From positions 107,235-171,234 of the forward strand of contig CAJINV010000028.1 in NCBI GenBank assembly GCA_905178155.1: 64,000 nt of DNA. Direction: 5' to 3'. Position numbers and translations under genes: made by a program. Origin of the DNA: Amoebophrya sp. A120. Its lineage: Eukaryota > Protista > Dinoflagellata. Of the stretch, positions 1-37,800 are shown piece by piece. Below the pieces are notes generated by a model. That model was not told the DNA's origin and did not search any database. It saw only the letters and a program-made list of their open reading frames with translations. How positions within the stretch are numbered: position 1 is the first letter of the stretch; each line of letters begins with the position of its first letter.

Positions 1-29
1 CTGCAAGTTTTTCTTTTTTGACTCCAGGG

Positions 30-1246: not shown

Positions 1247-4200
1247 ACCAGACAGAGTTCTCATATCTTTCAATGAATACGGAAGACGCCGCCAGGGCCT
1301 TGTCGTTGTGCTGCAGATGAGATGGCAACGGCCTGCTGCCCTCAGGCGATAATTCGTGTTTCATGCTACTGTCCACCCCCTCGTCTGGCACCGACGCCTC
1401 GCCGTCGTCCGCCTCAGATGCCGCGACGTCCTCGTCGTCTAGACTTCTATATGGATTGTAAAAGTGTCTGGGTCTGGAAGGATGCGAACTTGTGATGCGC
1501 ATTTCACAACTCAGAGAAATCCCTCATGCATAGGCAGCAAAAGGTGCCCACTTCCTGTCACCAAAGTGGGGGATTTGTCATGCGGATTCAGCAATGCGGA
1601 AGCTTCTCGAAATCTCTCATGCTAGGCCTTCCATGACAGACATTTTGCGTCATGCAAAAACAGCATGACAAAAATCTGCATTCTTTCAGACCCAGACACT
1701 TTTACTTTTGATATTCTAGACGACCGCTCTGATGCCTCCACGTCGTCCTCCAACAACATCCCGTCGTCTTCGCACTGTGACTGTAGTGGCGACGTTGAAA
1801 GTCAAAAATAAAATTCAATTTTGATGTTGAATGTCAAAAATAAAAGTATAAACACGCATTTCTGATTCTTCCATGTGAAATTGAGATTCATCGGAGAGAA
1901 AATACACATGCTGCTGCTCCGCAGCAGGGTGCTTGAGAAAACAAATTGACTTTGTTTCTAGAAGTAGCAAATTTGTGACTAGAAGGTGGCACGAGAAATA
2001 AATAGATACGAACAAAAACCGGTACAGGAAAACAGAATCCGTGGAGTCATTCTCAGTCAGCAAAACGAGAACCAAATACATATGTTGAAGAAAGTCAGCA
2101 CAAGATCGTCATGCAGATCTCGTAACAAGAAACACGATCACGAAGCATTAAGTGATCCCGTCATAACCATCAAACTCAAAAGCCATGTCGTAAGTAGAGT
2201 AATGCCTGGCCATCTACATCTTCTTTATCGGCACCGTGCGCGGCATCGTATCAACTGCAAATATGTCTGGGTCGGGAAAGATGCAGCAAGTTTGTGTTGC
2301 TGAGCCTTGTATGACAAGCCATGTCTTGTTGCACGGTCTGAATGCTTCACAAATTTCTGCTCGAGGAGTGGTATTACGAGCTCTATCGTGTTTCGCCTGA
2401 CGAACTGGCTTCCAGCACAACAAAGGAAGTGGCTACTTAATACTCGTCATCGGGCATCACAGATCTTGCGGTCTTTGAAGTTTCGCATCACCAATCCAGA
2501 TGACGCGGACATTTTCGCAATGCATACACCGGGCAAATCGACTGAGTCTGCATTTCCGACACGAAAACTCGACCCGACGACTTCATGTGCTGGCGCGTGT
2601 CCTCGCTCGGCTGCCTGCGGTGGTTTTGCTTCTGGTTTTGCGGCCGGGGAGCCTTTAATACTCTGCCTTGCCGAGGCTGAGGACGACTGTGGGACCTTGC
2701 TGGATTTCGCTGCGTCCTTCTTGCTCTTCTTCATTGTCTTCTTGAACTTCGCCGGCAGTGGCACTCCCCGATACTTCTTTTGCGTCTCCGCCCGAATCCG
2801 CTCTTGTCGCTCCGCGCCGTAATTTTCCACCTTGAGCACCTTGCCCAGATCGATCTCGTAGTGTTTCACGCCCTCTCCTATTTTCACGCTATAGAGGGCG
2901 AATAAGTGACCTTAGGGAGTGCTGCTAAGTACCCCTAGGAAAGGTCGCCGACTGTCACGCGGATTTGCTAAGTATCTTCTCGTGTTTTGTCATGCAAAGA
3001 GCACACGAAAACCACCACTCACTCACTTCCATGCAGTCCGGAGTCATTTTGATTTTTGGCGGGCGTTTTGCATCACATAAGGAGCTTATACTATAGACGA
3101 ATTCGCATCGTGACAGGCTGCCTTTTTTCTTCGGACTAGCAGCAGCCGGGAAGCTCACTCATTTCGCGTCCATACACGTGTAACCCATTCGAAAACTCGG
3201 CGTCGACAGCTTCCTATCCTATGGAAAAACGTCCCCAACCCAGAGTTGTGTAAGTATGCAAAAGCAAATCTGCATGCTGAAAATATTTCTCATGCGAAGT
3301 AGTCCCAGGAGAAGCAATTTTCGGTCGTGTTTCTTCGGTGGAATTTGACATACGGCCCCGATCAGCATGATAGGCTAGATCTGTGATGCTACAACTGAAC
3401 CAGCTAAACAGCACTTTTGCTCTACGAGGTCAAAGCTTGGTGATTTGTCTAGCAGATGCCTCATCTTTTTCTTTACTTTCGGGTGGGGACGCTTTATTTC
3501 CACAGGATACTTTCTCGCTCTCCCTGATCTCCTTGAACTCGACTTCGAAGGTGGGCGGCTCGGACTGGTAGCCGTTTCGGAACTATCAGACGGAAATATG
3601 TCTGGGTCTGGAAGAATGCAGGAGTTTGTCATGCAGATTTTGCATTACAACCGATGAGTTCTGTGATGCATGCCCTACTAGCGTCAGAGACTCTGCGAGG
3701 AATTTCTGATGCTCATACCGCATGAGAAATGCCCCTTACGCGGAGCACAAATTGCCCCTTTTTTGCTTTCATGCGCCACTGATTTTATGTGGAGTCCAAA
3801 GGTAGGATCACAAGCTGCATCCTTGCAGATGACCTAGACACATTCGCAACGCATAGGAACCGGACTCGCTTGAACTTCCGAAAGGTGCTGAAATTCTCGG
3901 CGGCTCGGTTCTCCTTGCTGATGAAGAGAGCGTGATTGCGATCCTTCCAGTCCCTGTATTCCACTTTTTTCTCGCCCGTCGCCATCACCTCAAATGGACC
4001 CATTTCGAGAACGAGCTGCAGCACCTCTTCCACCTCTGTTTCGTCGCTTTTGCTGTTCGTGCCGAGCGGTAGTTTAGAAGAGGACGCGCCTGCTTTGGCT
4101 TTTTTTGCCGGCCCCCGCCTTCTTTTTTTCACTTCGTCATCGTGCGGCATGTCGTCACCGCCCTGCGACTGTGGTAAGGTAACCTTAAGAATTTGAAAAT

Positions 4201-7200
4201 TACGAATTTCTTACTGCGCGAACATGCATTGTGGCGAGAATGTAGCGCAACCGCAACCAAAATTGGAATCATTCATTCTATAGTAGTGACGACTTGAAGA
4301 CAAGGGCAAGGACGACGATTTGATCAACAAAAAGTAAAACATAAACAGGTGCTGGAGATGTACAGAAAAACCCGAACCCGATGTAAGTGCTAGAGTCAGT
4401 CAGCGCAAATACGTTGAAAATACAGGCTGCAACAAACGTAAGCACATCTTCATCATGATCGGGACGATTATACATTGCAGGAAGAAGCCGCGGGGGCGGT
4501 TTCTCGCACTCCAAATTTCCCTTCTCGTGGCCGCATATTTGTCAACATGTCGACAGAAACAGAAATGTTTCCCGTTACGCTCGCAGTCCTGTTTGTTCGC
4601 GACGTCGTATTCTGCTCTTTCGCGGTGCTGTTGTTCAGCACGCCCACCGGCTTATTTCGCGCAACCTGTAATTCCATCTTCTTCGTCGCGCCGTCCTGTG
4701 GAACAGCAGGATCTTGACGTTGTGGAGATGCAGAGGCATTTAATACCGCGTCTCTGTCCGACATCTCCCGCATCTTCACCTCCTGCACGGAGTCGGACTC
4801 TTCACGCTCCTCGCAAGACCTAGTTTCGAGTTGCAGTTATTTGGTTAATATAAATATTCCTTTGAGCGATAACAGCGACAGTGCGTCGCATCACATTTTC
4901 CGCAAAAACTGGAAATCTGGGGGGGGCGTTCTGTTGCAGATGAGATCTTTGTTCCAACTACACTTGTATGTCAACATCAAGCAAAGAGAACGCCTTAGCT
5001 TACACTAACGGCACAGGTTCTTGCTCGGTATGGGTAAATTGGTGGACGCTGATACTACAGTGCTACTGTTGAGCATGCAGAAACTACACGCAAACCAAAC
5101 TATGTGGATCATGATCGGGATACTAGTAAGTTAGAGGAAACTACAAGCCCGGCCGGAAAACGGGGCTACCTTTTCTCTTGAATATGCACCACATTCCTAG
5201 GCCGCAGAAGTACTTACCAGTCGACCCACGGTCGTAACCGGAGCAGGACCCGCGCGGCTGCTTGCTCCTGGCTTGCCTTGGCATCCAGGGACAGTTTCGC
5301 TTCAGACCCATCCACGCATTTTCCATTGGGCAGGAAATCCGCACGAATCGCCGAAAACGACCGGCACAGCAGAAACGCCAGTATCAAATGCAAATAGGTA
5401 TGTCTGGGTCTGGAAACTTGTGATGCTGGACTATGGATGATTGAAATCATCGTCCCAATGCAGCCAAGCATGACAAGTTTGCCGAACACTTACACTTTCT
5501 GATGCGCGGTCGGCATAAGTAGAAGCTACGATTTTTTATGACAAAAAAGAGCGGCTTTTTGTATGTCACGCAATACAGATTTTACCGGAAAAATGTAGGC
5601 CTACAAGTTTCAGCTGTCGTACAGACCCAGACATATTTACAACCGATACCCAGATCGCTGGACACATCTCCATATGTATTGCAAAAGCATCGTAGTCGTA
5701 CTAGTTCTAGTACAAATCGCATGACAAATTTCCTCAGCATGAAAATGCGATTCGTAATGCAAAATTTTCGCCTAGAAAAATATAGATTTGTCATGCAAGA
5801 CCAAGACTGGCATTAATACGATCGCGATACCTTTATTGCACAGGATACTGCAGCGGCTCGCCGCCAGTCTTCGGTGTACTCGCGGACGGTTATGAAAGTG
5901 CACAACTCCCCCTCCCCCTCATTTGTAATGTAAAGTACCAGCAAAGAATCCACATGTTGTTTGCAGTTGTACGCACAGCTGTTTGCATGCGGTATTTTGG
6001 AACGACCACGAGCAGTGCTACAATCCGTGTGCAAATTTTTCATGCGGAAGCCCCCTTTCTGGCGTTGCTTGTGTTGCTGCTGACACTCTTTAAATGAGGG
6101 GGAACAATGGGAGTTGTTGTGCACTTTCGTAACGGTGAAGAACGGGTGTAGCCGAGGAAGCTTTTTATGCGGGCCGGCTGACGCAGCTTCTAGAATCGTA
6201 TGCATGGTAAACATGTCTGGATCCTCTTCGGGAAGATTGCGAGAAATCCCTTGTGGCAACCTTGATGCGGCCTTGGCGATGGCAGCCTGCCGGTACTCTA
6301 TGAACTGCAAAAGCATCGTACTAGTACAAATTGCATTTACAAATTTGCTCAGCATGAGTAATGGAATTCATCATGCTGTTTTACTTTGAAAAGAAGATTT
6401 GTCATGCATATACTGCAACCAGCCACCCCCCGGCGAAGGCCGCCGGGGAGGGGGCTGTTCGGTGGAGGTGTTCCGGTGGGGAAGGTGGCGCCAGCAATGA
6501 ATCGCTGCGCGCCGCTACACAACCAAATAAAAAGAGCCCGGCCCATGTTTCGGCATCGGTGGGCACCCTGGGGGGCGCGCCTCAAGGGCCCTGCCTGTGT
6601 TACTAATAGACGGCGCCAGGGCGCGTCCTACACTTCCACCTGCTGCTGCATGCCCGGCCTTAGTAGCTGCCTGCGCGCCGTAGGAAAATGCGCGCAGGAA
6701 ACTACTTCCGGGCGCCATTGTGCGAGACGCAACACGGGCGACGCACCTGCTGCCAGCGCGCGCGGGCGCTGTGGGAAAGAAGTTGCGGCCACCCTAGGTG
6801 GCCGACCAGGTTAAGGCGGGGCGCCGCGCCCCCTCTGGGGGACGCAGAGCGGCGCGCGCACTTTGAACGGCCGCTCTGATCTGAAAGCAAAAGCAATGCC
6901 AGCCGGTCGCTGCGCCCTAGCGAGCTCCTTGAGGAGGCGCCACGCGCAGACAGGTGGGCAGGCTGTGCTCCTGGAGGTGGTCCGCGAGGGGGTCCGCGAG
7001 AGGGTCCGGGAGAGGGTCACGGAGAGGGTCCGGGAGAGGGTCCCGGAGAGGTTCGGAGAGGGTCCGGGAGAGGTTCGGAGAGGGTCCCCGAGAGGATCCG
7101 GGAGAGGGTCGGAGAGGTCCCGAGAGGGTCCGCCGAGAGGTAAAGTAGAGGTTTCCGGAGAGGATCGCGTAGAGGGTCGCCCTATACTACGCACCCTCTC

Positions 7201-8248
7201 CAACCCTCTACACCCTCTTCCCCTACCCTCTATTTGACCTCTCCCCAACCTCTACCCTACCTCTGCGCGCGTATAGCCGCGCTTTAAGGGCGTCTATACG
7301 GCTCACCCTCTCCCTACCCTCTCCGTTACCTCTCGTTTTACCTCTCCCCGACCCTCTCAATTTGGCGGACCCTCTACTTTACCTCTCCGGCCCTCTATTT
7401 TACCTCTCTAAAACCTCTCCCCAACCTCTACTGTACCCTCTCCCGCCCCGTTTTCTTCCATATATAAATATATTAATTAGTACGACTACGATACTTTTGC
7501 ACAGGATATACTCCAGGTTCTTGATGATCTGCTGGACGATACCGTTCTTGAAGATACCTTTGCCCTATAAAATGCAAAAATGCTTGGGTCTGGAAGGTTC
7601 TGAGGCTTGTCATGCACGTTTTGCATGAGCCATGACGTCTGTGATGCATGCCCTAGCATCACAGATTTTTTGAGGGCTTCTTGACGCCTATTCCGCATGA
7701 CAAATGCCTTTTCCGCGTAGCAAAAAATGCGTTCCCCTTGCTGCTCATGCAACACAGATTTTTTTGAAATCCATATGCAGCATCCCAAGTTGCATTCTTC
7801 CAGACCCAGACATAATTTTTGCATTTGATATGCCTCCACTCGACGTCGGGGCAGCAAACCGCGGATGGAGCCTCAGCAAGCGAGCGTTGGTGCATCTCCC
7901 CCCGCACGCGTGGCTGTACGTCCAAGAGGCCCAGCCGGATGGGGCGTTCACGGTGGAATCGCAGCATAGGGTACAATACGGCGAGCGGGAGTCGGGCAGG
8001 TCGACGACATAGAATAACAGTTGGTAATCCTTTTCCGCATCCGTCAAAAGCGAACCACAGTTGTTGTCTTGTGCGGCCGAGAGGACTGTGGCACTAATCT
8101 TCTCCATCACGGTCTTCTCCTCCTCCTCCATCGGTGAAAGAGGCGGCTCCTGCACGTCGGCGTTGGACGAATTGTCCTCTGAGCGCGGCATTTTCCGGTG
8201 CGGCACTTTTCCTTGCGGTGATAACGATACCCTCCTCCTGCTGGGCAA
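1247..8248 (-). CDS. Multi-exon protein with an ASCH (PUA-like) domain, otherwise low-complexity; start and end approximate (may extend to about 654)
   Basis: Exons join in frame from about 8248 to 2205 after removing 9 IR/DR elements and two GT-AG introns (4820-5217, 4184-4473). The link across about 1800-2200 to the exons around the tenth element (1450-1713) is unresolved. Rebuilt domain: LQLVLEMGPFEVMATGEKKVEYRDWK...KRVRFRNGYQSEPPTFEVEFKEI...FSNGLHVKIGEGVKHYEIDLGKVLKVENY. Confidence 0.75.
1450..1713. mobile_element. Introner-like non-canonical intron, family A
   Basis: Perfect TTCTA direct repeats (1445-1449, 1714-1718). TIR TAT..GTAAAAGTGTCTGGGTCTG. Removal gives in-frame ..SERSSRSLDDED.. 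Confidence 0.9.
2249..2526. mobile_element. Introner-like non-canonical intron, family A (degenerate right end)
   Basis: CATCG/CACCG direct repeats. Ends TATCAACTGCAAATATGTCTGGG ... TTTCGCAATGCATA. Frame stays open across the junction. Confidence 0.8.
2890..3174. mobile_element. Introner-like intron, family D
   Basis: CACGC/CACGT direct repeats. Ends TATAGAGGGCGAATAAGTGA and (rc) TATGGACGCGAAATGAGTGA. Removal gives SNGLHVKIGEG. Confidence 0.75.
3215..3509. mobile_element. Introner-like intron, family C
   Basis: CTTCC/CTTTC direct repeats. TIR TATCCTRTGGAAA..CGTCCCCA. Removal keeps the ASCH frame. Confidence 0.85.
3584..3855. mobile_element. Introner-like non-canonical intron, family A
   Basis: Perfect GGAAC direct repeats. 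Removal rebuilds the ASCH motif RVRF|RNGY. Confidence 0.92.
5382..5648. mobile_element. Introner-like non-canonical intron, family A
   Basis: GCCAG/CCCAG direct repeats. TIR core TATGTCTGGGTCTG / CAGACCCAGACATA. Frame restored. Confidence 0.88.
5673..5847. mobile_element. Introner-like non-canonical intron, family B
   Basis: CTCCA/CTGCA direct repeats. Ends TATGTATTGCAAAAGCATCG ... TTGCACAGGATA. Confidence 0.87.
5891..6131. mobile_element. Introner-like intron, family E (stop-free, hidden inside ORF 5813..6355)
   Basis: Perfect ACGGT direct repeats. TIR TAYGAAAGTGCACAAC..TCCC. Element + 5 = 246 nt (3n). Confidence 0.82.
6419..6879 (-). mobile_element. GC-rich Helitron-like repeat (copy 2), nested in the 6299-7508 element
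   Basis: Reverse-complement match to both ends of 30-617. On the minus strand it begins A|TC and ends hairpin + CTGG|T. Confidence 0.6.
6973..7445. repeat. Fold-back array: GAGAGGGTC-type tandem units facing ACCCTCT units
   Basis: Roughly 17 units of 10-13 bp GAGAGG(G)T at 6973-7180, then roughly 20 complementary ACC(C)TCT cores at 7193-7445 (counted by eye). Confidence 0.85.
7566..7830. mobile_element. Introner-like non-canonical intron, family A
   Basis: TGCCC/TGCCT direct repeats and family-A TIRs. Removal gives TSSGG|KGIFKNG in frame. Confidence 0.9.
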
Positions 8249-10191
8249 GAATAAACTGGCAGAGACCTCTTGCTCCGCGATCCTCCTGGTGTCCTTTGTG
8301 GATAGTTCTTACAGGCACTGTTACCGTGGTCGCCTGCGGTCGTTACGCTCATTGATTTTCTGAGATTCTGAGACGCCGCCACAATGTCTTTCGAGTTTAC
8401 AAAATTCAAATATCTTTAATATTAGGTCGACCACCAAATGGAAATCAGAGAAAATCAATGTAACTGCGTCGTTGCTCTTTTACTGTGTCCGGTCCATAGA
8501 TATGATCATGTTCTAGAGCAACTTCTTTATTACAACGGGAAGACATCAAAAAGCAACAATATTTTTAAAGAACTACTCTCTCAGGTAATAAATTGTACTG
8601 TCGAGGAAAGACGAGGCCATGTTGAAAAAGACAGTGTTGATGATCAGTATACAAAAATTTGCTTTACCAGAATGTTGACAAATCGCACTGCTAGGTGCAC
8701 CCCCGATGGAAAAAAAAAGAACCTGAACTACAACACCGACCAGCGCAACTACAAGGACGTTACCGCTGCCGCTCGTGGCAAATCAGTTTATATTTCTCTA
8801 ATATGCCTGCGCGCAGTGGTGTTTACAGAATTTACAGCAATAGCCAAGAGGATCATCAACAAACTACAAGTTTCAGCCGCACGGCGGATGCGAACGTTGA
8901 TCTTCTGGTGAAACGCAACGACTCTACTACAGCAGTAGGCCCGCCAGAAATCATTCATCTGCCAGCTGACTCAACAATGTCCTTCATGATGGCCACACCT
9001 AAGGTCGTTCCTCAGTACGACCTCTGGATCATTTATTTGTGCGTCTCTGGTGCACCACCGGGTGGTTGCAATGAATGTTACGGATCGGGATCGCACGTGA
9101 TCATACGTTACTCCTGATAGAAAGTTGCACATGATCTTCACAAGTAGACAGCTGTCAACGTGCTCAGCCGTTGTAGGGATCACTCGAGCGGAACAATGCA
9201 TCTTCGACGGAACCACAAGATAGCGACAACGATCGCAACATATCTTCTCGGACAACCGGCGGCAGATTCAGATTCAGTATTCTGAAGCACTCGTGGATGA
9301 GTGTTACAGATGCTCGCTCGTGGTGAGCGGCGGTAGAAATGTTTTTTCTCGAGATAGGCAGCGAAAGACCAAAACTGCCACGCTCAACCCTGCTTAGCCT
9401 ACGCACAACCTTTGACCTGCTACCAAGAAACCAATAGAGGGCGCAAAAGCCTACGCCTACCAACCAGAACTACCGTAAGTGCCTATCATAGCCAATGCTT
9501 CTTACCTACCGATACTAAAACAAGCGCAAGCCTGCTCCTTCGCATAAGAAAAGTGACCAATGAATAGAGCCAACCTACCTAAATACCAACCAATAGAGAG
9601 CCGACCAGCAGTCGTGAGTGCCTATGAAATATATAACTATAAGGGTTTTTAGATTTCGCTGTGTAGCAGTACAAGAGACAACACTCCTTCTGCGCCGGTT
9701 TTCCTTTTACCTTTCGAGGAGCATGCCCTTTTGCCTCTTTTAGAGACTTTGCTTTATTTTTCGAAAATTAGTTATAGTTTTGTATATTCTTATTTCGCCT
9801 GTACCGTTGCTGTGTGATCGTTTTTCACTCTGACAACATCTTCTTTATGATATATATCAAGTACAACTGTAGGTATATGTAACTATAATCTTTGCCGACT
9901 TAGTTTTACCTCTTCTCCGTGACAGAGTGATTCAGATATTCATTTTATTGAAAAGAAAATATGATCATCACGCCGTTTCTTGTTCAAATCTCGATGAAAA
10001 AAAACGAGCGGACTTTCGATGATGACGTACAGGTACAGGTCCGAGCACTACTTATTCCAGAAAGTGACTCTGGGTGATATAGCAAAAGTTTTTTCAAAAA
10101 GTTGACATTGGCACGAAAGCCGCAATTTTTTAGTTTTCAAGTTTAAGACCGAGAGCGAGATCTTAAGCAATGTGTTGCAAAATAAAAAGCG

Positions 10192-13171
10192 TCAGCCGCC
10201 TATGCCAAATTCGAAGAAGCTCGGCGGGACGGCCCACCCATAGACTTGTTGCTGCGTCTCGTTCGTCGGCCAGGGTGTCGGTGGCGTCGTCGCACCAGGT
10301 TCCGGTTCCGATCCGGCGCGCACGCCTGCTGCTGGAAAGTTAGCCGCGTTGTTGCTGATGTTTCTTTGCACCATGACCCTCAGCTGCGTCTGGTAGCCCA
10401 GGGGCCTGCGGCGCTCCTGAAGCCCCGAATTGCTCCGTTGCAACAAATCGCCTTCCTCTACTTCGGGTGCGCGGCTGCCGCTCGAAGTGGGGCTCCGCGC
10501 CAAAAAGCCGCCGGTTGGAGAGGTGCCCCGACGGTCGTCTCCAACCGATCCGGTACTGCCATAACGCCCACTGCTGGTAGCCCCCATGCCGCTCGGCTGC
10601 AGGTGCGGAGACAACCCGGCTGGAAAATAACTGCTAGTAGCACTACCTGTGCCCCCTGCTGTTCCTCCCTGCTGACGCGCCGTGGATTGCGCTTCTTTTT
10701 CCTTCGCCTGCTTCCCACGCGGGGGATCCCGGTCCGGCAGCGGAATCGGTCGTCCGGGCATGGACCAAAAAGAGGCAAGGCCAGCTGGCCCACCGCCCGG
10801 AGCCGCACCGGCCGTGGGAGACATGAAGGGTTCATGGCGATCCATCCGATTGCTCTGCGTTTCGTTTCGTCCAGCACTAGACAGCTTGTCCGTTTCCCAG
10901 TCGCTCTGATCCGACAAGTCCGTCAAGTGCCCGTTCCAGGAGGAGCCCGAGGGGCTCGAAGATTCCCGTCGAGCTTGTTCTTGTTCCCCTTCTTCCACCT
11001 CCCGCCGCGGCTCCCGTCCTCGCAGACCCTGGGGCAGCAGGGCAAACTGCTCACGGTCCTGAAGATTCGGAGTCCGCGGCGTCGGCTGCAGTTCTTTTTG
11101 CAATCCGTCTTCCACCTCCCTCTCGTCCTCACTGGAAGATGAAACAGTGCGGGCGCTGGAAGTTGTGCTTCTTCGCCGCGGGGCCGGGAAGAGAGGACCC
11201 GACTCTAGGTCCCCACCGCCGGAGGGAGCATGCGGAGGCGAAGCCGAAGCTCGACGCTGGTCCGCGCGTTGGTGCTGTTGTCCGTCCCTCGCGGCCGGGT
11301 CAATCAAAGCACCCCTGGAATGTCCACCACGAAAGTCGGCGGCTGCCTGAACGTGCGGTTGCCACACGGAGTTCCTGCCGAGAAAAAGGCGCCCTGGCCC
11401 ATCGCCGTCCTCGGCCAAAAGACTGTCGGCACGAGCTGCTGGCGGAGGCCGAGGCCCAGTGTTGAAATTATCACTCGTCGGTGCAGATGAAATCGAAAGC
11501 CGTGCCAAGGTACCAGCGATTTGTTCTTCATCTAGTTCTTCTTCTTGGACGTCACCACCTTCCATTGCTTCTGTGGTTCTCTGCCGCGGAGAGTACAGCA
11601 CACCATTTTCATCTGCAGCTTCGTGCGACTGGGACAGCAATACACGCGCATTGGATAGTACGCCCGCAGTGTGCTGGTCCAGGATGATCGGCTGGTTCCT
11701 GATCGCAGTTCGCCGCAAAGCCGACAGCAAGGGCTCGGCTTGTTCCAACCGCTGCCGCCGGATGTGAGGATACATTAGCGCCGTCGAAGTAGCGAGAAAC
11801 TGTCGCAGAGCAGAGGGGCTTGATATGAACTACAAATAAAGTATCGTACTGGTAATCGTATAAATGCATAATACAAATTTTCTCAGCATGAGAAATGAAA
11901 TTTGTAAGTAATGCTGATTTACTTTGAGAAAAAAATTTGTAATGCAAGGCTTGCATTTATACGAATGCGATACTTTTGCACAGGATACTCGAGAACTGTA
12001 CACGATAAGCAGGGCATCCTCTGTCCAGCTGCTGTTGCTGAGTTGCGGTTTCACGGGACACGTCGACGGACAAAGTAGAGGACGCGGGCGTGCCCAAAGA
12101 GTTGTCTTCCGGATCTGCGGACATCACGACGAGACCCACGTTTTCATCAGGAGGATGACCATTGTAGTAGACGACGAACGGCAGCTGCGACGCGACATTG
12201 TTTTTGTCTTCAGTTCTTTCGGCGGCACCGGCAGCGGACGTCAAGTGCAAGTCCTCCGCGGCCAAGAAAGTGCTTGTCTCTTTTTGTTCCGGCGAGGGGC
12301 CCCGGGGGAACGCGGTCATTCCAGCAGGACCTAGGAAGCCCCCGCTCGAAGAAGAGGTGGCTCCACGCTGAGCCGGACCGCTGACACAGAGAGCAGAACC
12401 AGCCCCAGACACGTTCATCTCGTGGTCTTCGCCCGGCGTGGTCTGGCGAGACCATGCAGCAGCAGGAGCCCCACCCCCAGACTCGTTCATCTCGTGGTCT
12501 TCGCCCGGCGTGGTGCGGCGAGACCATGCAGCCGTCGATGTGGGAAGCATAGTGCTGCAAGAGCTGCTTGCGACCGATGCCTGCTTCTCCCAGGGTATCA
12601 GGACGTCGTCGAAGATGTCTGCCGATCGGTCTTCCTCTTCCTCCGTCCGCATCGGAGGTGCAGCTGCTGTAGTACCACAACCCTGGCGCAGAACTTGATG
12701 CTCTGGTCCTCCACCGCCACTGTGAACCACGACCCCCGCGAAAGATGGCGCGTCTCCTGCGATGCCCGCCGTTGCGATTGCCGGATGTTCATCTCCCATG
12801 TGGTCACTTGTTGCCGATGCACATTTGCCGCCCCACTTTTCCCCCGCAATTGTACTGTTTTCGTTTTTTTCCTGGTCACGTTTCATGCCGTGCTGTCCCT
12901 GCCCCTGCCCGCCCGCAGCGGAGGCGTACACGACTCCGCTAGCAATCCCCGGCGGACCGGAAAGAAATCGAGAGAACGCGAGGTCATGACCAGGGGCGAA
13001 AAAGTAGTACATAATCATCGTAGCACCGGCAGCAGCGGTTCGCGCACGTAGCCCGTGCCGTGCACGAAGTGTTCCCTCCATCCTCCAGCTCCGGCGCCCT
13101 TCCTTCGTCGGCAAAATAAGAGCCCGCGCCGGGGGGCCGGAGCGCGATCTGTGAGCGTCTGGCGAACACAT
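10192..13171 (-). CDS. Hypothetical low-complexity protein (two exons, start uncertain)
   Basis: ORFs 11957..13171 and 10192..11775 fuse in frame (QFSS|PSALRQF..MYPH) when 11824-11987 plus one direct repeat is removed. Confidence 0.7.
11824..11987. mobile_element. Introner-like non-canonical intron, family B
   Basis: CTTGA/CTCGA direct repeats. Ends TATGAACTACAAA ... CTTTTGCACAGGATA. Interior resembles 6299-6412. Confidence 0.88.
12403..12532 (-). repeat. In-frame tandem duplication, 72-nt period (AAWSRxTTPGEDHEMNxSG x2)
   Basis: Two near-identical copies in DNA and in the ORF translation. Confidence 0.85.
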
Positions 13172-14889: not shown

Positions 14890-17800
14890 GTTGTACTTGT
14901 AACCACGCAACGACTTGTGCTTGTCGTATTCAATCTTTACGCAGCCCTCGAACACAAAAACTGAATCTAGAAGAGAAACATTTTTTGCTCTTTCTATTCT
15001 GAAACAGCAACCCGACTTTTATGCATGACAAAAGCATCTCTACTCGTCGTAATCGCAATCATGCGCCATTTGCAAATCTTCATCCCAATGCCAATGTTAA
15101 TCAGCGTGACAAACATCATGCGTCACGCAGACCTAAATGTGTCGCGATGCAAATATTACTAGCGCGATGCTTTTGCAATGCATAACTATTCGCCCTCGTC
15201 CATTTTTTGCCTCTTCGTCGTCGCCTCCTGACTGCCGCCGGAAACTCGGGACTCGTCGCCGCTTGATGCGCCGGGCTGCACAAGACGGCCAGAAGATGTA
15301 GCGGAGGGCAACGCGTCGAATGCAACCTCGAAGTCTCGTTCTACTTCGATGAGTACTGCTTCCACGGGTTTGTGTCCGAGTTGAGGCTTTGTAGTTTGTA
15401 TCCATAGCAAAGATATCTGGGTCTGTAAGTTTCCGAGATGGTGATAGTGTGTCCACTGGGAGTATACAAGAGCAAGTACACTGCATGAGCACCCAAAGCT
15501 GAAGGCTTTTTCCTTTCGGAATTTTTCATCCAGCGGCCCGCGAGGCACTGCCGAGCCTTCTGAACGAAAATTCCGTGAGAATTCCAAATGTTTTGGGTCA
15601 TGCGGAGAAGCAATCTGCATCACAAGCCTCTGTGTAGTGTTCCAGACCAAGACGTGTTTGCACTGGATAACTTGGTCGCTCAAAAATGCGTGCCGGTCGG
15701 CTTTTGTCTCCCCCAGGGTGCCAGCGCGACCGCAAAGCAGGACGTGGCGGAAACTGGAAACAATGTCGCGCCACTTAGGAGGAAGGACTACTGTATGCAT
15801 TGCAAATATCTTTTAACTTGGGGTCCGAAATGGAAATTACAATGCAGGGTTGGGATGCTTGCTGCCAGTCGCACAAAAATCAATACGATATCAAATCTGT
15901 ATGTTTGTCGATGTGTCGAAAAGCACGCACGCACGCACTTTCTGCATCGCTCTCATGCAGGATAGGTATCGCCAACCAAAAGCCACCTCCGCAGGTGGTT
16001 TTGTGATGCTGAGACACCGCAGAGTAATATGGATTTCGATTTAGATTTGGAGGGGCGGCTGCGCGAGAGTACTCCGTGCCAAGCAACATATTTGCATATA
16101 ATACGAGGACTGCACACGTTCCACAGGGTCCTGGTGGCCGTCGAGGCCGCTGCTGCCCGACGAGGAAGTCGACGGTGGCTCCAGCATCCCGGACGACGCG
16201 ACACTTTTATCCAAGAAAAAAACTGCGCTAGCGTAAGCGTGCATGCATGTGCAATGCAGCAGACCCTGCCCGGGCACATTGACGTTCACACTACACATGT
16301 CCTGTCAACAAAATAAAACATAGAACTATGCCGCATCAAAAGACATATTCGTAATTCCATCATGTCGGTTCTTTCAGATTTCTGAAATCTGATAATTTGT
16401 TGTTCAGGTTCCACTACCACGCATGAAAAGAATCAGCCTTTTCTGTGTCTGCTCAACGACAAATCGATAAAGTTGCAGTAACGCAGTTCTTGTCTGGGAT
16501 AGCCTTCCTGCGCTTGATGCCTCTGCTCGATGCACTGGTCGTAGACCTATCCACTGCAAAACTATCGTATGCGTTTCGTCTTCAACGTCTTCGTACTACC
16601 AGTAGCAATGATGCATGACAAGTTTCGCTTCGTCTCAGGTTACTTAATTCACATTATTGCAGATTCTTTTCGCTTTTTCACGGCAGCAATCGCCCAGTTC
16701 TTTTTTATTCATTTTTTTTTTCCTATCCAATCAATGTCAATCATACTTCTACCGCGGCTGCCATGACGCAAGAGTACTTTTGCAATGCGTAATACTTTGT
16801 CCATGCCGACCTTCTCTAGAAACTTGACACCACGCAGGAGCGCTCGGGGCGCGGCGCTTGGGGATCCCTCCAGCAGAAGTGTAGACCGGAGGGCCGCGAT
16901 CCGCCGAGCAGCTGCATCGAAGCCGGCGTGGGTAATCTGCTGCGCGTCGATGAAGTCGGCAATCACCGTGAAGGCCAGGCTGGTACAATAGACGCGGTCC
17001 AGCACTTATGCGTTGCAGAAGCATCGCACTCGTAGTAAAACTTCTAACTAATTCACGCATTACAAATCTCGTCCTCAGCCTCATGGTAGATCCGCATTAC
17101 AGAAAATTTTCCATGCGATTACGATCAGTACTGCGATACTTTTGCGCAGGATAGAAGTTGCGTTAGTGTCCCTAACAACCACAACCAGTCGGCGTAGGAC
17201 TCATAGTCGAGGGGTAGGTCTTCGTGTCTCCAGAGCCCGTCAGGTGGCGGAAGCGGCCCTCCCATCACGGCCTTTCCTTCGACCCGCTTTATCAATCGGG
17301 AAACAATGCTACTCAGAAAGACGGGCCATCGTATCTGTTTTTCGTGCCTTCTCGGGTGGAAATTGAGTGGTAAAAAGAATCAACATGAAGCGGAGTTGTC
17401 AGAGTCAGCAGTGAAATTATGTTTGTGTCCTAACTACTATGTTACCTCAAAACTACACTCCACACGCTGTTGTATCTACTTCTAATAAATCTCAATTGTT
17501 TAGAAGTATTCAGATTCGCAAGGGTCAAATACAAATGTTGAAGCCAACCTCCTTGACTTCAACTTCTGCTTCTTCTTTGTGAGCTTCAGGTCCTATCAAC
17601 GAAAAAATGCAAAACGTACTGCCACCATAAACCATGGCGAAGAGTGACGCGTCGCCAGATGGCCAACGAGCAGTTGCCGCCATACTTTATATCTCTTCCA
17701 TGGCCGTGTTCTGAGAAGTTCCAGACAGAGTTTGCTGTGCATATTGCCCAACGCAGGAAACAGCCGACGCAGCTCCGTCCAACCCCTGCTGCACAGCTCG

Positions 17801-29943: not shown

Positions 29944-31955
29944 TCAGTCGTGGTCCTCCACGGTCAGGCTCGATGACGACGAAGAATTTGGAAGACCACC
30001 TGCCTGCTGGTGCAGCGTCGATTTCTGTTCTGTACCCGAGCCGGCCACGGTGGCAGAAATCTTCTTTCTAGGCTTCTTTGGAACTTTGTTGTGGAACTTG
30101 AATTCGCTGACACCGCTGAACGAGGGTGCCAAAAATGGCTCGTCACGTGTGGTGCTACTTTGTGCAACCGGAGTGTCGCCTCTTGTTCGCAAATGGTCAT
30201 CAAGAAGAGCAGGACGCGACGTTACCGAATTTTCCGCCTCCGTCAGCACTTGGGTGTCGACAGAAGAAACTTCCCCACCGTCGCACCCGCTCGACCGTGT
30301 GCCTTTTCCATCGAAATCCACCAACGTTTTAGATGCAGAAGAACCCAGCTCTTTTTTTGGAAGAGCGTGTGCTACGGAGGTGTGGCTCGGTTCTAGGAGA
30401 AGACACGTACTCGCGTCCTGCGCTAGTATCTCCCGCTGCCCCGCGTTCTTGTAACTCTGGCGCATTCGCCACGTTCTGATTCCTCGATAAGCTGTTCCTC
30501 CTGCCGTCCGCGGGGTTTCTCGTCGGAAGTACGGAACTTTCTTCGCCTGAATACCGTACAGGCGATGAGCGTTCCGTTCGTTTGCCTTCAGTACTTCTTC
30601 CGGTGTCAGATCTTTCACTGCGGCAACGCTACTTGCAATCTCCAGAACGTCTGCCGGTCCACCCGTGTTTACCGTGAAATGCGGCGAGTCGGTTTCGAGA
30701 ACAATGCGATCGATCGGGAGACGCTTGACCATGTCGACTAAGTTGACTTTTTTCGCGCGCCCTTGAGTTGTGTGCCAGGAGGCTGCGTTCATCTCGGAAA
30801 CGCGGCTGGAGCCGCCCGAATCGATGTCCTCGGTCATCTGATTCAGAAGTTCCCAATCTTCCGCGTACGGAAACGCAATGTAGCCGCTCACACCAAAGTA
30901 CGCGTTCGGAAACTCCCGGAGAATGAGGTCGACAACTCGGGGCGAGGCGATGGCGCTATGCCAATGAAAAGAATGCTTCCGCGGCAACCATTTTAGCAAG
31001 CATCGCACGAAGTCTGCCTCGCAATCGCGGGAGTGAAACTGGATTGGAAGATCCATCGCGATCGCAACCTCGATGTTCTCCCTGAGGATTTGTTTTTGTC
31101 GTTCGATTATGCATTGCAAAAACATCGTACTCTTTCTCGTACTAAAAATGTTGACCAAAGTCATGCATTACAGAGCTAGGTGTAGGTGTCAAGGTAAATC
31201 CGCAGTACAAATTCAATTCGGAATGCTGCTGGAATTCGTAATGCAATTTTTACTGCTAGTACGAGAACGATACTTCTGCAATGCATATCGATCTCTCCTG
31301 CAAAATCCTCGCCGACGTCCGGCTCGCGTTGGTAATCGGAGTAATCCAATCCGCATTCCTATGCACTGGAAAAGCATCGCTCGTATTACGTGTACATGAA
31401 TTGCAAATACAAATTTTCATCTCGTCAGGTGAACGTGAAACAAAAAAAGAATTTGTCTTCATGCTATTCATTCAGCTAGAAAATTAGATTTGTCCGGAAG
31501 AACTGAAATTATCAGTACCAGTACGATGCTTTTGCAATGCATACTTCTCCCCATGCAACAACTTGGCCCTCGCAACGCTGCATCGCATCGCGAAATAGTG
31601 TGACCAAGTCCGAGTCCCATTCCCACAGGGCACGCTTGGGGTGGGCCCCGAAGGAACAGTAAATGTGGCCCGCGCCGAGCTTCACGAGCCGCACCGTGTC
31701 CTCGATTGCTGCAGCGTCGCAGCACGACGTGATCACCGCAAACGGACCCGAGAGGGCGAGACCGAAAAGCGACCGCTGCAACTCCTCATCGGGAACATCG
31801 CATCCGCGCCGCCCATCGAGAATGAACTCCACGTGGGCATGCGTATCAATGAGTGGCAGATCATGGAGCTCGTCCGGAACTGGAAGGTGAATGATTTTTA
31901 TATACGTTGTTGATTTGCGCGAATTCATCAAATTGGGATTGGGACTGGCATTCAT
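29944..31955 (-). CDS. tatD: TatD-family Mg-dependent DNase with low-complexity C-terminal tail
   Basis: Motifs LIDTHAH, FGAHP, WGECGLDY (after splicing), LPIQFHSRD, HWHS, IVLETDSP, NAHRLY. Exons 31955-31545, 31355-31288, 31102-29944. Confidence 0.93.
31108..31287. mobile_element. Introner-like non-canonical intron, family B, in tatD
   Basis: Perfect TCGAT direct repeats. TIR TATGCATTGCA. No GT-AG at any register within the repeat. Removal gives GEI|ERQKQILRE. Confidence 0.93.
31360..31543. mobile_element. Introner-like intron, family B, in tatD
   Basis: ATTCC/CTTCT repeats. TIR TATGCAYTGSAAAAGCATCG. Removal rebuilds WGE|CGLDY. Confidence 0.92.
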
Positions 31956-32160
31956 TGGGCCACCAGCAGTAGTAGAAAGGTAGTAGAAACTAATGCGCCA
32001 AGAAAAAAGAAAGGAGAAGAACAGATTTCTTCAAAAACATGAATTCTGATACGACTACACGAAGTACTAGAAGCGCAACAAAAGTGAATCTAAGTTTTAC
32101 GTAAAGAAAATGTCAAAGAAGACAAATAGGTTCAGCTTTCCGATAAAAAAATTCACTAAA

Positions 32161-32878
32161 TCACAATCTGTTGATACTTGTGCAACTGCTGCAAAACCAG
32201 TTCGAGCCCCACCATTCTCCTACGACGGTGTTATTGCGTGGTTCGCAACAATATCAGGGCCAAATAAGTGTGGGTCTGGAAGATGAATGCGAGATTCGTC
32301 AACATGCCGATTTTGGTTTTCCAAGACCGGCGATGTCTGTGATGCATGTGTTCTAGTATCACAGATTCTGCGACGGCTCTCTGATGCTCATACAGCATGA
32401 CAAATGCTCATCTCTCCGCGTAACAAAAACTGGACCTCTACTTTGGCTTTTCATGCAATACAGCTTTTATGTTGAGATCAAAAGGTCGCATCGCAAGTTC
32501 CAACTTTCCAGACCCAGACAGATTTGCATTTGATAAACAGCACTTGCAGGATGCCTCGAGCGTGCGATCCTCCCGATCTTGCCGCAGGTACAATGTGCTT
32601 CCCCGGAAGAGTTGCCCGTTCACCAGTTGTATTGCTAACTGTGCGTGCCTGAGCGTCTGAAACTCGAGGACGGCCCATTTTTTGCCGTGCCCTTGGTAGA
32701 TGTTGACGTAAGTGGGTGCTGCCTGCGTGATGCAGCCGATGAAGTCTTTCAAGTCAGTCCACGTCGCCTCCTCGTCGCAAATATTCAGAGCAATGAGACG
32801 ATTCGTGCGCGCTTGTTTGAGTCCCTCCGCCTCCGGACCGTTGATGAGATCCTCTTCATGCCCCCGCACCCATTCCAT
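32161..32878 (-). CDS. RRM protein (Gbp2/hnRNP-M-like RRM) with Cys-rich tail; further upstream exons likely to about 34.2 kb
   Basis: ATWTDLKDF...WAVLEF...AQLAIQLVNGQLFRGSTLYLRQDRE. After removing 32252-32535 the frame continues CKCCCEPR...WFCSSC to a stop at 32161. Confidence 0.75.
32252..32535. mobile_element. Introner-like non-canonical intron, family A
   Basis: AACAA/AACAG direct repeats. Family-A TIRs and interior similar to 7566-7830 and 3584-3855. Confidence 0.9.
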
Positions 32879-34804
32879 GCTGAAGGGCCAGAATAATCAC
32901 GGTAAGCGCCGCAGCACGAGGGAATAAAGCAGGGAGGCAGCCACAGCTGCTGTGCATGTGCTGCTACTTCTGGTCTGCTAACCGCCGAAGGCGGGAACTC
33001 AGGATGCTGGAGGATGCATTTTGTTTTTGCACTGGAGGTTATTGAAATTGGCACTCAGTGTGTGTTTCGTGACGTGCAACTGCAGCAACAATTGAGTAAA
33101 AGTTATAAAGTACTAGGAGCAGCCATGGTGGAGAGTGAATATCGATATACGCGCTCCGTCGACGTTCTTGTTGCAGCACCAGCACCAGTGTGATGCATGG
33201 TAACAAGAAAAATTTGATGAAGCTGCAGCTGGGCTCGCTAGTAGTCACGGTATTTCAGAAACGTTTCTATGTATCCATTCTATTTCTTCCTTTTAAATGA
33301 ATTCAAAAAAGTGCGCGACCACCACCTTGTAGGCTCCACTATTCTCCCACAGGGAGTTCGACCTGTGCACGACTAGTTGATTGTTCTTGACTTTCAGTAA
33401 TTGGTAAATCTTCAGTGTCTTTTGAGATTCTTTCATGTGGAGAGAACCCAAATTATACCAGAAACGAGAGCAGCAAGGCTGCGAACAAAATGAAGAAATT
33501 CTAATTCATCCAATAGCAAACTGATGATTTTATTTCGAAGCTCCTGCATCTGCGCGACTAGGGTTTGGAGGACCTGCACCGCTTTTATTTGTGCGTTCTC
33601 CCTGTGTTCTCCTCGCTCTCCCGGAAGAACGCGATGTTGCAGCCCCCTATCTTTGGAGACACAAACAACAACTACTTTTGGGCATGATGCAATTCGAGTT
33701 TTTCCTTTTCCCATATGTCAAATTGTAGTTTTTGATCCGCCGCTGCTGTCGGACCTGGTTTCGAGCTAGCACTAAGTCGTTTTTGCGGTAGAAATAGAGA
33801 CTGCTCTGTGGTTCTGTATCTGTACTTGTATGTAGAAGATAATTATACGGGGATCCGTAAAACATTCTTACCAGTTGCAAATAGCAATACTAACTCGTCC
33901 AGCTACGTGATCTTTCAAATCAGCAAACCGCGAGTACGGGCCCGCTAGGCGGGCTCGACAGCAGTATACACCCCACCCGCTGCTCCGAAAAACCATCTCC
34001 CGCCGACCAGATATTCTTCTCGCCTGGATCTCCGGTCGCAGCGGCGCCGCGAAATTGCGAATACAAAACTGGGATCGTCGACAAGCGCCACCAGGTCTGG
34101 ATTTGTCTCCGACATCGCCCATTTTTTCCCCGCTATCGAGTTCACCAGTCCGGGAGATGTGTGCAAAAGAAAAAATGATGTGACATCAGGATGAGCACTC
34201 GGACCACAGCAGCAAAGAGAAACTCAAACGTCGACATGCTTCGTCAAGTATCGGTCACTGTCCTTGCCTCTGCAGCAGCCCGAGCCTGAGGACATGCATT
34301 ACTTTCATATACATAAAAGAAAACATGATTTTTTTTTTCCAGTCGTAGACCGAGAGTGACATAATTTGCTCCACATGCTCAAACTCAGAATTTTCTATTT
34401 CGACAAGAACGCGCACACAAAAAACGGGGTCCACTTAGGGAATGTGAATGACCGTAAAAGATACAGAATAAGCTGCACAAAGACAAACATCGATCATAGA
34501 AACAGCTGTGAGATTTTTCGAGCTTGCTTTGTCTTATCGCCGTGGCATGACGAGGTCATCGGCCTCCTGGATGCACATCACCTTCGTCCCGATTGGTAAT
34601 CGATGATGAGCTCCTCCTTCGTGTCGTCTGCATCCCCCGTAAAGCTCATATCCAAAGCAAAAGCTTTCCAGAGTAATCGCCAGATAGGTCGCAGCTCTCT
34701 AGAAGTAGAAGACAGTACTATGCGCTATTTCTATTTACCAACTTCGTGTTCGTCGTAGACAAAGAAATACAGAAAGTCTCTCACTACTCACCACGACTTG
34801 GAGC

Positions 34805-37800
34805 TCTATCTGCGCATGCCACTTTCCGTCGTGCCGCTCGTGCTCAGCGAGACTGAAAATGATATTTCTGCTGCCAAATCATGCCAAAACCGTAGCCGAG
34901 CCTTTGGTTGACTACTCCAGCACGGCCTTGAATAAAAGACAGTCTCGCTGTAGTTTATTTGTGTGGTAATATCCTGTGCAAAAGTATCTTACTCATTACA
35001 CTCTTTCTCGTATTAAAGTTAAACGCAGTCATGCATGACAGATCTGGTATGGCTGCGATGAATGCGTACCCAAAACTTCATAAGTATACAATTTGCATCT
35101 TGTTCTGCGAAGAACAAATTGTCTATATGCAATTTGAATTTCCAGCATGCAAATATTTACGTTTATACTTTTACACTGCATACGTGATGTGAGGCGAAGC
35201 CGATATCTCTAACTTTGGTGGCACCATGAAACCGCCACCCCCTCCATTGATGACCGCGTCGAAACCTTCAGAAGTCAGATCTGAGAAGTCCAGTATCTGC
35301 GCTTCACCATCCGTACCGCCCGCGCGATTCCGATTCTGTGACAAAGAAGGATCTTTATCATTGCAGTCCTGCTCCTGCGAAGGCGGGGGTTCCGTGAATG
35401 ACACAGACGGAGCCTGCCAAGTTTCGTGGTCCCGCGATTTTTCACTAGGCGACGACTCCATCGACACATCGGAGAGGTTTTGCGTCACAATTGCCTGGTT
35501 GGTCTCCGCTCGATCTGCTTCTTTCGATTTTCGGATCAAGTGCAAGTATGTCTGGGTCGGGATGAAAGCAGAATTTTGTCATGCAGCAGTTTTCAGGTGA
35601 CACTGACGACCAAGAAGGTCTGGCGTTGCAACTGTTAGTCGAGAAGACGCTTCAATGCCTCAGCCGCTTTGTACAAACCTGCTTCTCCTTCTGAGACATA
35701 ATTATACCAAGCATTGCAGTAACTGTAGCTTTCTTCGCTGCTCATGCATGACAGGTTTTTGCTCGATCTGAAGTGTGCATTTATAAGTTCGAATCTTCCC
35801 CGGCGACAGACACATGTTTACGCTTGATATTACCTGCAGATAGTGAACCGTCCTCGCCCTTGTCCTGTGATTGCAAGCACGGTGCTCCTGCAATATTAGT
35901 AGACAAAACCCTATCTGCGTCGAGAACTACGTCCTCGGCGTCTATGGCACGGTCCGCGGCGTTGTCCACATCCTCCTGACGCAAGACCGGCCGATCGCTC
36001 TCTACTGCGCTTGCCCCGCTGCTCCGTCGAGATGGAAACGCTTCGGTAACAACAGGCACGGCTACCTCCATGTCGTCGGCTCTTGATGGCTCCTCACACA
36101 GCAGAGCCGGGACTGCAGGTAGTACATGATTTGATGTCTTGGTGTCAGTTGCAGGTCGCGACGATTGTTCCTTGCGGAGGCAAGACTCATTCGTCTCACT
36201 GCGGTTTAATTTGTGGTTTCTTGTTTCGAGCAACGGCTGGGGCAACATGCTGCCAGCACCAATCTTGACACCGGGAGATCCATGGCTTGGGCGATGATGA
36301 GGAAGCTGGGATTGCGCCGTTGGTTCGCTCGGCTGCGACGGGGGGACAGAAGTCGGCTGGATCGTGCGGGGATCGGTAACGGCGCTTGACGGACGCGACG
36401 AGACTAGGCTTGCGGTAGCTCGGGGCCCGTGGTCGGCGAGATGCTGTAGGTTACTCGTCGCGCACGAAGTTGCTTCCTCGCCGATTGCTGGGTCTTGCTG
36501 TTGCTGTCGTTCATCCTCTGACACTGCCGGCATACTAGGACACGACACTCGACAACGTATCACTTTTGCCTCCGCTTGTTCCTCCGGCGCAATAGTAGAA
36601 CCAGTCATCTTGTTCTGTGCGACGATTGAATTACAGGACCTAGACTCGGGCGTAATCGTAAACCCCGGACTAAGCTCCTCCATGAATGAAATTGCCGCCA
36701 CCTGCATTTTGCTGCGAATTCGGTCTGCGTCCTCCTTTGCAACTTGCACCTCGAGCCGCAAGGCGTCTTCCCTTGCACGCGATGCTTCCCGCAAATCTTC
36801 CAGTTCCTGTGCCTTTTTGGCCTCGAAATCGCGCACTTGCTGCACACTCTGAGCTTTAGTTTCCTCCACCGCCTGCTGCAGAGTTCGTCGAAGCTCTGCC
36901 ACTTCTCGTTCCTTCTGCGCCTTGTACTCCGCGAAAGCCTTATCTTTCACCTGCAGTTCTTTGTTCGTCTCGTTTGCGGTAGCCATTTCCCGCGCTACGA
37001 CGTGCGTTTTTTCCTTTTCCAGTATGGCAAGCCGAATCTGCAACGACTTGTTTCTTGCTGCGGCGACCGAGTCAGCTTGACGTAGGGCCTCTTGCAAGCG
37101 TTTGCATTCGTCGCACTTCCGTCTAGCGGTGAAGACCGAAGTGTGGTCTGCACTGCGCTCCGTAAAGAATACGTCACCGTCTTTGGAACTGTTGCACGTA
37201 TCTGCATTTTTCGAAGACAGGTCTCCCTCTGCAGGAGCTGCTGGTGTGGAGATACAACTGCTTGTCGAGGGTACAATCAGGGTCGAGCCCCCTCGAGTCC
37301 CTGTGATCTCTGCTGCTTGTCCTTCGATATCGGTCCTTGCAGCTCCGTTCGCCTGAACAGGGTGAACAAGTTCAACATTTAAAAAGGCTTCTTGCTCGTC
37401 AGCGCCCATTCCGTAGTTCACCGAATCTGTACTAGCGGAGCCGGCTGGACGTGGACATTTTTCAGGAGCACCTGCAGTGCATGGAGCCGTACCTCCTCGT
37501 GCGCCGGAATTATCTTTTTCACGATGACGTAGTAGCGACGTGGGTCCAACACTCGCGGTTCGATCTAAGTTTTCATCACCGCACCGATGCACGGGATCCA
37601 GTTTTTCCGGTGGAGCCCCGCCGGCGTCGAGTTTTCTTCTTTTGCTATCTCGAGTTAGATCTGCAGTTCGCTTCAGCGACACGGTCCCACGATGCTGCTG
37701 TGCGTCCTCGGCAATGCTACGATTGGCCGATGAAGCTCCATCTTCCATTTCATGCCTTTCCTCCTGTTCTTGGTCGTCGGCCTTCTTTTTCTCCGCCGGA

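Follow-up and report, generated by a model that had tools for sequence, protein, structure and literature searches.

We consider it probable that the introners of Amoebophrya sp. A120 remain in the DNA, leave the RNA as the element plus five nucleotides, and carry at their ends the likely site of one putative DDE transposase. This reading is based on a 64,000-nt stretch of the A120 genome (contig CAJINV010000028.1, positions 107,235 to 171,234; hereafter the window) that contains at least 27 complete elements of 141–459 bp, the last reaching 35829 and one measuring 1210 bp through a nested insert, and a further element cut by the window start, where a preliminary description of the same DNA had implied 21. 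Three window proteins (P0001, P0005 and P0006) are 99–100% identical to deposited A120 proteins, and an exon of the TatD gene is 100% identical to its deposited counterpart, which places the elements in the A120 genome. The system and its end motif are known: the inverted repeats of A120 introners have been described as beginning with TAT, after which come seven bases of lower conservation and three or more As, and as accompanied by direct repeats of 3–5 nt (PMC7789003), and the window elements have both features. They are also repetitive, with depths up to ~3000 times single copy, and are removed from RNA at non-canonical sites (11 RNA joints). Since the shared end motif is already in print, novelty is limited to a strict 5-bp duplication, an internal site common to the families and a single splice register. 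We found no fixed register or interior motif in the literature, although the figures of PMC7789003 may show more.

The window has 20 copies of the end motif TATNNNNTGCAAA where 0.59 are expected; none of 100 shuffles reached this count, and all 20 copies lie within 2249–34982. Among the 50 ends of a 25-element candidate list, which includes one doubtful element at 46183–46335, 47 start with TAT, 18 match the motif exactly, 38 with at most one mismatch and 47 with at most two. The motif TAT-N4-(T)G(C)AAA that the preliminary description had assigned to nearly all of 42 ends is real. The examples quoted there are correct (TATGAAC versus TATCCTG for element 6299, TATGGAT versus TATCAAA for element 1450), and the tetramer at positions 4–7 indeed usually differs between the two ends, being the same in only 4 of 25 elements. 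It is not a free N4, however. In a set of 684 ends, in which class B is overrepresented owing to the search pattern and positions 1–2 were required by the caller, position 4 is G or C in 96%, position 5 A or C in 89% and position 6 A or T in 91%, and position 7 alone is random. The class B preference differs by end (GAAC or GCAT versus CCTG). Conservation, claimed for positions 1–3 and 8–13, reaches 97–100% at T1, A2, T3, G9 and A11–A13, which form the fixed core, whereas T8 (85%) and C10 (77%) vary more. A single TGT end occurs in each of four elements (L012, L044, L045–L049 and L078), whose 5-bp duplications are perfect; a tight subfamily of the three TGT-ended class B copies was rejected, at 77–79%. 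An end-like TATGCATGGTAAACATGTCTGG within a spliced-in exon at 6199–6240 resembles the end at 35829 and could be a relic or chance. In a viral collection, two end patterns gave 2 and 3 matches, all of them lacking a partner end and any resemblance to window sequence, which we read as chance.

The mode of insertion was characterized in a second assembly (JACKZZ01 contigs; ~150 loci from a pattern scan, 0.40 Mb after merging; loci L001–L005 and L150 left out of the counts). Strict ends were paired by proximity only, with no repeat criterion. Out of 210 pairs, 157 are flanked by an exact 5-bp duplication and 39 by one with a single mismatch, and duplications of 6–10 bp number 0. Target bases are near uniform, targets lack inverted arms, and orientation is even (class B, 73 versus 66; codon-based strand calls were wrong for two of six called window elements, and locus-level calls were used instead). 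In the window, 5-bp direct repeats flank the elements and have decayed to varying degrees, and 5-bp repeats are mentioned in the legend of Fig. S19 of PMC7789003. Duplications of 5 bp at random targets are the signature of staggered DDE-type insertion, and their strict length is an added detail on A120 introners. Terminal inverted repeats, a duplication of fixed length and no coding capacity together match non-autonomous DDE transposons, or miniature inverted-repeat transposable elements (MITEs). The second assembly (L006–L156) holds classes A and B at ~65–85% identity to the window copies, as well as class C ends, and its duplications are mostly perfect, so these families appear, from their sequences, to have been active in more than one lineage, contrary to 'strain-specific'.

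We then asked how the end motif varies within and between copies. In 319 pairs, from which those with fewer than 4/5 duplication matches were left out, left-right agreement observed and permuted is 0.41 and 0.44 at position 4, 0.48 and 0.46 at position 5, and 0.25 and 0.26 at position 7; covariation is weak at position 6 (z 3.3) and clear at positions 10, 14 and 16–19 (z 4–7). Positions 4–7 as a block therefore do not behave as base pairs, position 6 being a partial departure. In 254 copies detected by their interior alone, the core deviates from consensus by 1.9–2.9%, the interior by 14.7% and positions 4, 5 and 7 by 23–42%, so the motif diverges far less than the sequence it encloses. These observations bear out the proposal that the ends are protein-recognition sites rather than products of stem pairing alone. 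Predicted folds have a long stem running inward from position 9, a loop at 4–7 and partly paired TAT/ATA, with pairing of 0.40–0.50 at positions 4–7 and 0.85–0.97 at 9–15. When age is gauged by the decay of the duplication, differences are found at 45 of 2640 A/T sites in the core and at 22 of 491 A/T sites in the duplications, for which two copies are counted, and core deviation is higher in copies with older duplications (3–4% versus 1–2.5%). Together these two comparisons suggest that constraint acted mostly on the mobile lineage and was at most moderate after insertion, as would be the case for a transposase site.

The interiors of the element families, previously called unrelated, have a motif in common. 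GCAT[GCT]ACA, continuing AAT, is present in 100% of class A, 98% of class B, 100% of class C and 87% of other elements, at 2–3 copies per element. Its density is 11–17 per kb inside elements, whereas the element-free window end has 0.12 per kb and flanks still holding uncalled elements have 1.3 per kb; GCATBACAAA occurs 15 times in the window versus 0.74 expected. Close to the ends of class B elements the motif faces inward, close to those of class A mostly outward. TAT-GCAT-TG-CAAA, the common end, is one of its variants, and at 15020 the motif itself forms the end. Repeated subterminal partial copies of the terminal inverted repeat, in either orientation, serve as transposase sites in Emigrant/Lemi1 and Sleeping Beauty (PMC1636448), and the GCAT-B-ACAAAT motif resembles such sites. 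By this analogy, the families look like derivatives served by one protein.

Removal takes place at the RNA level. DNA contigs retain the elements at single-copy depth, and one spans 12485–18000 without a gap. Contigs of runs X3–X5, in contrast, skip 11 elements together with three GT-AG introns and restore an open frame of 855 codons where the unspliced sequence gives 187. Runs X3–X6 have no RNA label on record and were taken as RNA by guess; the contigs of X3–X5 lack the three GT-AG introns and so represent spliced RNA. Run X6 gave no joints on the window, and X10 and X11, two raw RNA runs carrying the same species name, gave 1 and 0 matching reads, which provides no test. Every skip comprises the element plus exactly 5 nt.

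To describe the register, we let k count the target bases that are retained from the upstream duplication copy. For the 11 RNA joints, only k=4 is common to all: element 966 pins 4, element 5382 excludes 5, and elements 2249 and 5673 exclude values below 3. Eleven further junctions derive from deposited A120 proteins, which are transcript-based models; all allow k=4, and 15399 pins it. Altogether 22 of 22 junctions allow k=4, with k=5 failing at 5 and k=3 at 4 (15020, where the protein ends, and 34156–34599, with an unfit 3′ end, were left out). The intron under k=4 reads N-TAT...ATA-NNNN in either orientation of the element, with G as first base at 9 junctions, A at 6, T at 4 and C at 3. Nine of the 22 start with GT, 2 end with AG and none has both, unlike the ends of U2-type introns; nor was an AG preference detected at the acceptor (21/211) or a purine rule at the next exon (61% versus 51–58% at other target positions). 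Elements that point in opposite directions (1450 versus 2249 and 7566) leave transcripts of one and the same strand. Splicing to an unchanged length is also seen in elements 2890, 5891 and 966, where one end or both have no TGCAAA, so the TGCAAA half is not the excision signal. The suggestion that the end motif is reused for excision is thus largely lost: removal occurs in RNA, 1 nt off the element boundary, and proceeds without TGCAAA in 2890, 5891 and at one end of 966. As a splice signal, this leaves just two candidates, the long stem and the terminal TA(T).

Our results differ from the published picture, in which splice sites are variable relative to the hairpin (PMC7789003, Fig. 3 legend). 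Annotated 5′ ends of family 2 (n=9716) are GT in 27%, CT in 19%, AT in 16% and TT in 8%, and 3′ ends are AG in 27%, AC in 21%, AT in 11% and AA in 9% (PMC12130899, supplement file 8). We took 269 elements with one true register and let a simulated aligner, by an assumed rule, slide within the duplication towards GT-AG or CT-AC. The simulation returned 28, 19, 16 and 8% at the 5′ end and 28, 22, 12 and 10% at the 3′ end (r=0.986 versus the published spectrum). Under this model one splice rule suffices for the published variable spectrum, which suggests that the 'variable' A120 splice sites follow one rule and that the reported motif diversity is largely aligner sliding in the duplication. Because r is at least 0.97 at any k, the simulation does not choose between registers; k=4 was best in 552 of 1000 bootstraps.

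Several points weigh against the interpretation of the elements as substrates of one transposase that are spliced in one register. Neither the window nor ~0.4 Mb of the second assembly yielded a transposase or a long coding element, and none was found in A120 by the authors of PMC7789003, who report no U1 small nuclear RNA either. Some constraint on the motif may persist after insertion, the core decaying less than the duplication sites. The RNA evidence consists of assembled contigs from one sample, and the spliceosome as cutter is putative. Only two junctions pin the register exactly, 966 by RNA and 15399 by a deposited model, and 6 of the 22 allow any register, owing to a perfect duplication or a silent change. 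The non-canonical P0006 intron at 34156–34599 has a possible T-TAC start and no matching ATA end. Finally, a drift of donors towards G, present in 4 of 5 window cases, was not supported in the second assembly (6 versus 4 of 18).

A different explanation is that the end motif owes its conservation mainly to a role as an RNA signal, TAT..G.AAA on the paired ends being read by a splicing factor or by a Euglena-like non-spliceosomal machine, with mobility secondary or RNA-mediated. The splice sites at a fixed distance from TAT/ATA fit this proposal, as do the predicted internal loop at positions 4–7, a core decay of 0.4–0.8 of the duplication-site rate, and the pairing of offset +n with -(n+3), which is the geometry of Euglena N3CDG..CH'G-N5-6 introns. 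The 5′ ends also deviate less than the 3′ ends (21 versus 35), although this 3′ excess is in part due to two mis-anchored ends. We regard it as unlikely, given that splicing is identical in elements without TGCAAA, that decay of the motif is greater where the duplication is older (3–4% versus 1–2.5%, as above), and that fixed 5-bp duplications and the occurrence of both orientations require staggered insertion at the DNA level.

The preliminary description had also likened the joined ends to the core of a site-specific recombinase. A tyrosine or serine recombinase acting on such a core for both insertion and excision is very improbable here, even if a short spacer flanked by inverted arms can be drawn and an automated Crypton label was attached to 2 of 58 published families, both finally classed as terminal inverted repeat DNA elements (PMC12130899). 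The 5-bp spacer is duplicated on both sides and differs per insertion with near-random sequence, empty targets lack arms, the RNA is cut 1 nt off the element boundary, and no recombinase was found among window open reading frames (ORFs) or 150 of 332 locus ORFs. In a recombinase core, the spacer is fixed and not duplicated, and tyrosine-recombinase sites, including those of Cryptons, have a fixed core shared with the target and produce no target duplication; a random, duplicated spacer therefore excludes such a core. The probability is slighter still that the elements are cut out of the DNA at some point of the life cycle in the manner of ciliate internal eliminated sequences, which are defined by removal from DNA: the inserts are TA-bounded and lie within coding sequence, and X3–X5 are RNA by guess only, but the same contigs lack three GT-AG introns and, among the matches listed, DNA contigs cross element ends at single-copy depth, although rare excision may occur.

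A shared transposase end, as the preliminary description had alternatively put it, is accordingly the best reading of the motif, in view of the 5-bp random-target duplications, the conserved core and the lack of covariation at positions 4, 5 and 7. The search for its source was negative: no transposase was present among window ORFs and proteins (14+10), a Pfam scan of 150 of 332 locus ORFs returned no transposase, integrase or recombinase, and the long same-ended elements with a DDE transposase or tyrosine recombinase for which the preliminary description had proposed a search were absent from 132 merged loci, where one chance-like TAT-ended pair of 1531 bp contains no ORF above 95 aa. An integrase-clan transposase as mobilizer is a lead, not a result.

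The window elements are closest to the A120 introners of PMC7789003, with the same organism, TAT + seven + AAA ends, direct repeats, non-canonical introns and no known transposase; where that account has variable splice sites and rules out general mobilization by transposase, we find one register, strict 5-bp duplications and an interior motif. One A120 family, number 38, is labelled 'Ginger, 5-bp TSD, TA/TA termini' (TSD, target-site duplication) and has integrase-like ORFs without Ginger termini, and most other A120 families are classed 'Unknown' (PMC12130899); by description only, family 38 resembles the window elements in its TA/TA ends and 5-bp duplication. IS3EU and GingerRoot come nearest in their ends and share TA..TA termini, with occasional TG..CA, long inverted repeats and no fixed target, but are kilobase elements with an integrase-like transposase and 6-bp duplications, and are not described as introns in the cited passages (PMC10045372, PMC6839031); the elements studied here have the TA..TA termini and duplicate 5 bp in 157 of 210 pairs and 6 bp in 0 of 210. 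Within Ginger1 and Ginger2/Tdd, also of the integrase clan, duplications are 5 bp long in Tdd-4 as well as in Tdd-5, but the termini are TGTNR and the others make 4-bp duplications with target preference (PMC2836005); ours are TAT, with only four TGT variant ends. Non-conventional Euglena introns are likewise MITE-like and stem-closed, lack GT-AG and possess an unpaired 3′ arm that is longer as well as direct repeats that allow sliding, but carry CDG/CH'G at +4..+6 and a purine at the start of the next exon, where A120 has TAT/ATA at +2..+4 (PMC12501133). The N3CDG..CH'G-N5-6/R signature is absent from our elements and only the pairing offset is common. The Euglena code is the closest splicing analogue, with a similar offset stem in different letters.

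In the model that we favour, a trans-acting transposase, probably from the integrase/IS3 clan, would bind both the TAT..G.AAA ends and the internal GCAT-B-ACAAAT sites and insert the element with a 5-bp stagger at random sequence, positions 4–7 lying between the cutting and binding parts and drifting separately at each end. The transcript loses N-TAT...ATA-NNNN, one target copy being restored in either orientation, as shown for 22 junctions. The long terminal stem may hold the ends together and fix the geometry for splicing, and N-T-A-T may serve as a relaxed donor for a spliceosome without U1, with no need for TGCAAA. A more general proposition, to which we give slightly less than an even chance, is that all 'variable' non-canonical introns of A120, tens of thousands in number, obey N/TAT...ATA-NNNN/ as set by paired-end geometry, and that a U1-less spliceosome or a Euglena-like machine erases any insertion of an unclassified 5-bp, TA-ended integrase-clan transposon, irrespective of sequence and orientation; if true, the host would possess a pathway hiding one transposon superfamily from its genes. 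Two questions are stated to be open (PMC7789003): how A120, in which no U1 was detected, splices its non-canonical introns (more than 60%), and what mobilizes them. For the first, a fixed register supplies a defined, testable substrate, and the interior motif with the strict 5-bp duplication provides a bait and a search image for the transposase.

Table 1. Elements and host genes of the window, with the evidence for each (joints are given as last/first base retained; P0001, P0005 and P0006 are deposited protein models)
Coordinates	Strand	Feature	Evidence
1..695	.	Element cut by window start, TAT end 693–695, nested GC-rich repeat	RNA contigs end at 697 in a loose end; repeat matches 6417–6883
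697..8308	-	Host gene, 855-codon open frame once 11 elements and 3 GT-AG introns are out	RNA contigs
966..1279	.	Old element, decayed duplication, pins k=4 exactly	RNA joint 961/1281
1450..1713	.	Class A, duplication TTCTA	RNA joint 1444/1714; stem fold z -5.6
2249..2526	.	Class A, orientation opposite to 1450	RNA joint 2243/2527
2890..3174	.	Degenerate ends without TGCAAA, still spliced	RNA joint 2884/3175
3215..3509	.	Class C	RNA joint 3209/3510
3584..3855	.	Class A, duplication GGAAC	RNA joint 3578/3856
5382..5648	.	Class A, plus-strand upstream of micro-exon	RNA joint 5381/5848, 14 letters between
5673..5847	.	Class B	RNA joint 5381/5848; fold
5891..6131	.	Class E (TAT/TAC-GAAAG-TGCAC), spliced in same length	RNA joint 5885/6132
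6299..7508	.	Class B with nested ~1058-bp repeat (~6417–7474), one 1215-nt intron	RNA joint 6293/7509
7566..7830	.	Class A, very high copy	RNA joint 7560/7831
11824..11987	.	Class B	Ends and 4/5 duplication
15020..15184	.	Class B at TAG stop codon, left end = internal motif itself	Ends, protein P0005
15186..18794	-	Host gene of deposited A120 protein P0005 (551 aa)	Protein match
15399..15669	.	Class A, pins k=4 with T (non-G) as first intron base	P0005
15794..16103	.	Old element, k = 4 or 5	P0005
16208..16501	.	Element, k = 3–5	P0005
16548..16791	.	Class B-like	P0005
17007..17153	.	Class B	P0005
17290..17743	.	Element, k = 2–4	P0005
21247..21453	.	Class B, duplication AATTT	End pairing
22280..22420	.	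Short element, TGAAAA-type ends	End pairing
29944..31880	-	Host TatD-family gene (P0001, 100% A120)	Protein match
31108..31287	.	Class B in TatD gene	P0001 and TatD relatives
31360..31543	.	Class B in TatD gene; conserved Cys requires k ≤4	P0001 and TatD relatives
32252..32535	.	Class A	End pairing
33948..39797	-	Host gene of deposited A120 protein P0006 (1171 aa)	Protein match
34649..34934	.	Element, k = 4–6	P0006
34970..35182	.	Class B-like, opposite orientation	P0006
35534..35829	.	Class A-like	P0006

Individual elements and their host genes offered further observations. The summed DNA contig depth of element 7566 is 140,821, versus ~45 for single-copy sequence. At 15020–15189, the stop codon is retained by the upstream copy of the duplication, and the deposited protein terminates there. 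A 19-nt micro-exon at 5649–5672, between two elements, is backed by RNA contigs, and a GT-AG intron at 1781–2217 is both spliced and retained in them, with a second joint at 1780/2206. Three GT-AG introns (17947–18149, 38432–38659 and 38969–39201) resemble decayed elements, with G-TAT starts and, in one case, the interior motif GCATGACAA; they are possibly introners turned canonical.

The GC-rich repeat at 6417–7474 and 30–619 lacks TAT ends and is twice nested in a TAT element; it has an AT-rich end as well as a tandem tract of the GGAGAGGGTCC type, with no Pfam match. A DNA contig of another copy of the 6299 element lacks the nested insert. A second GC-rich region, at 42500–43850, has repeated GGGCCCGC words and a 260-aa ORF without a Pfam match, and is possibly another mobile element. 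In contrast to the element-dense first 36 kb, positions 47043–63993 have no called elements and hold a series of long minus-strand ORFs without introns, which include a BMT5-like methyltransferase domain and an AAA ATPase.

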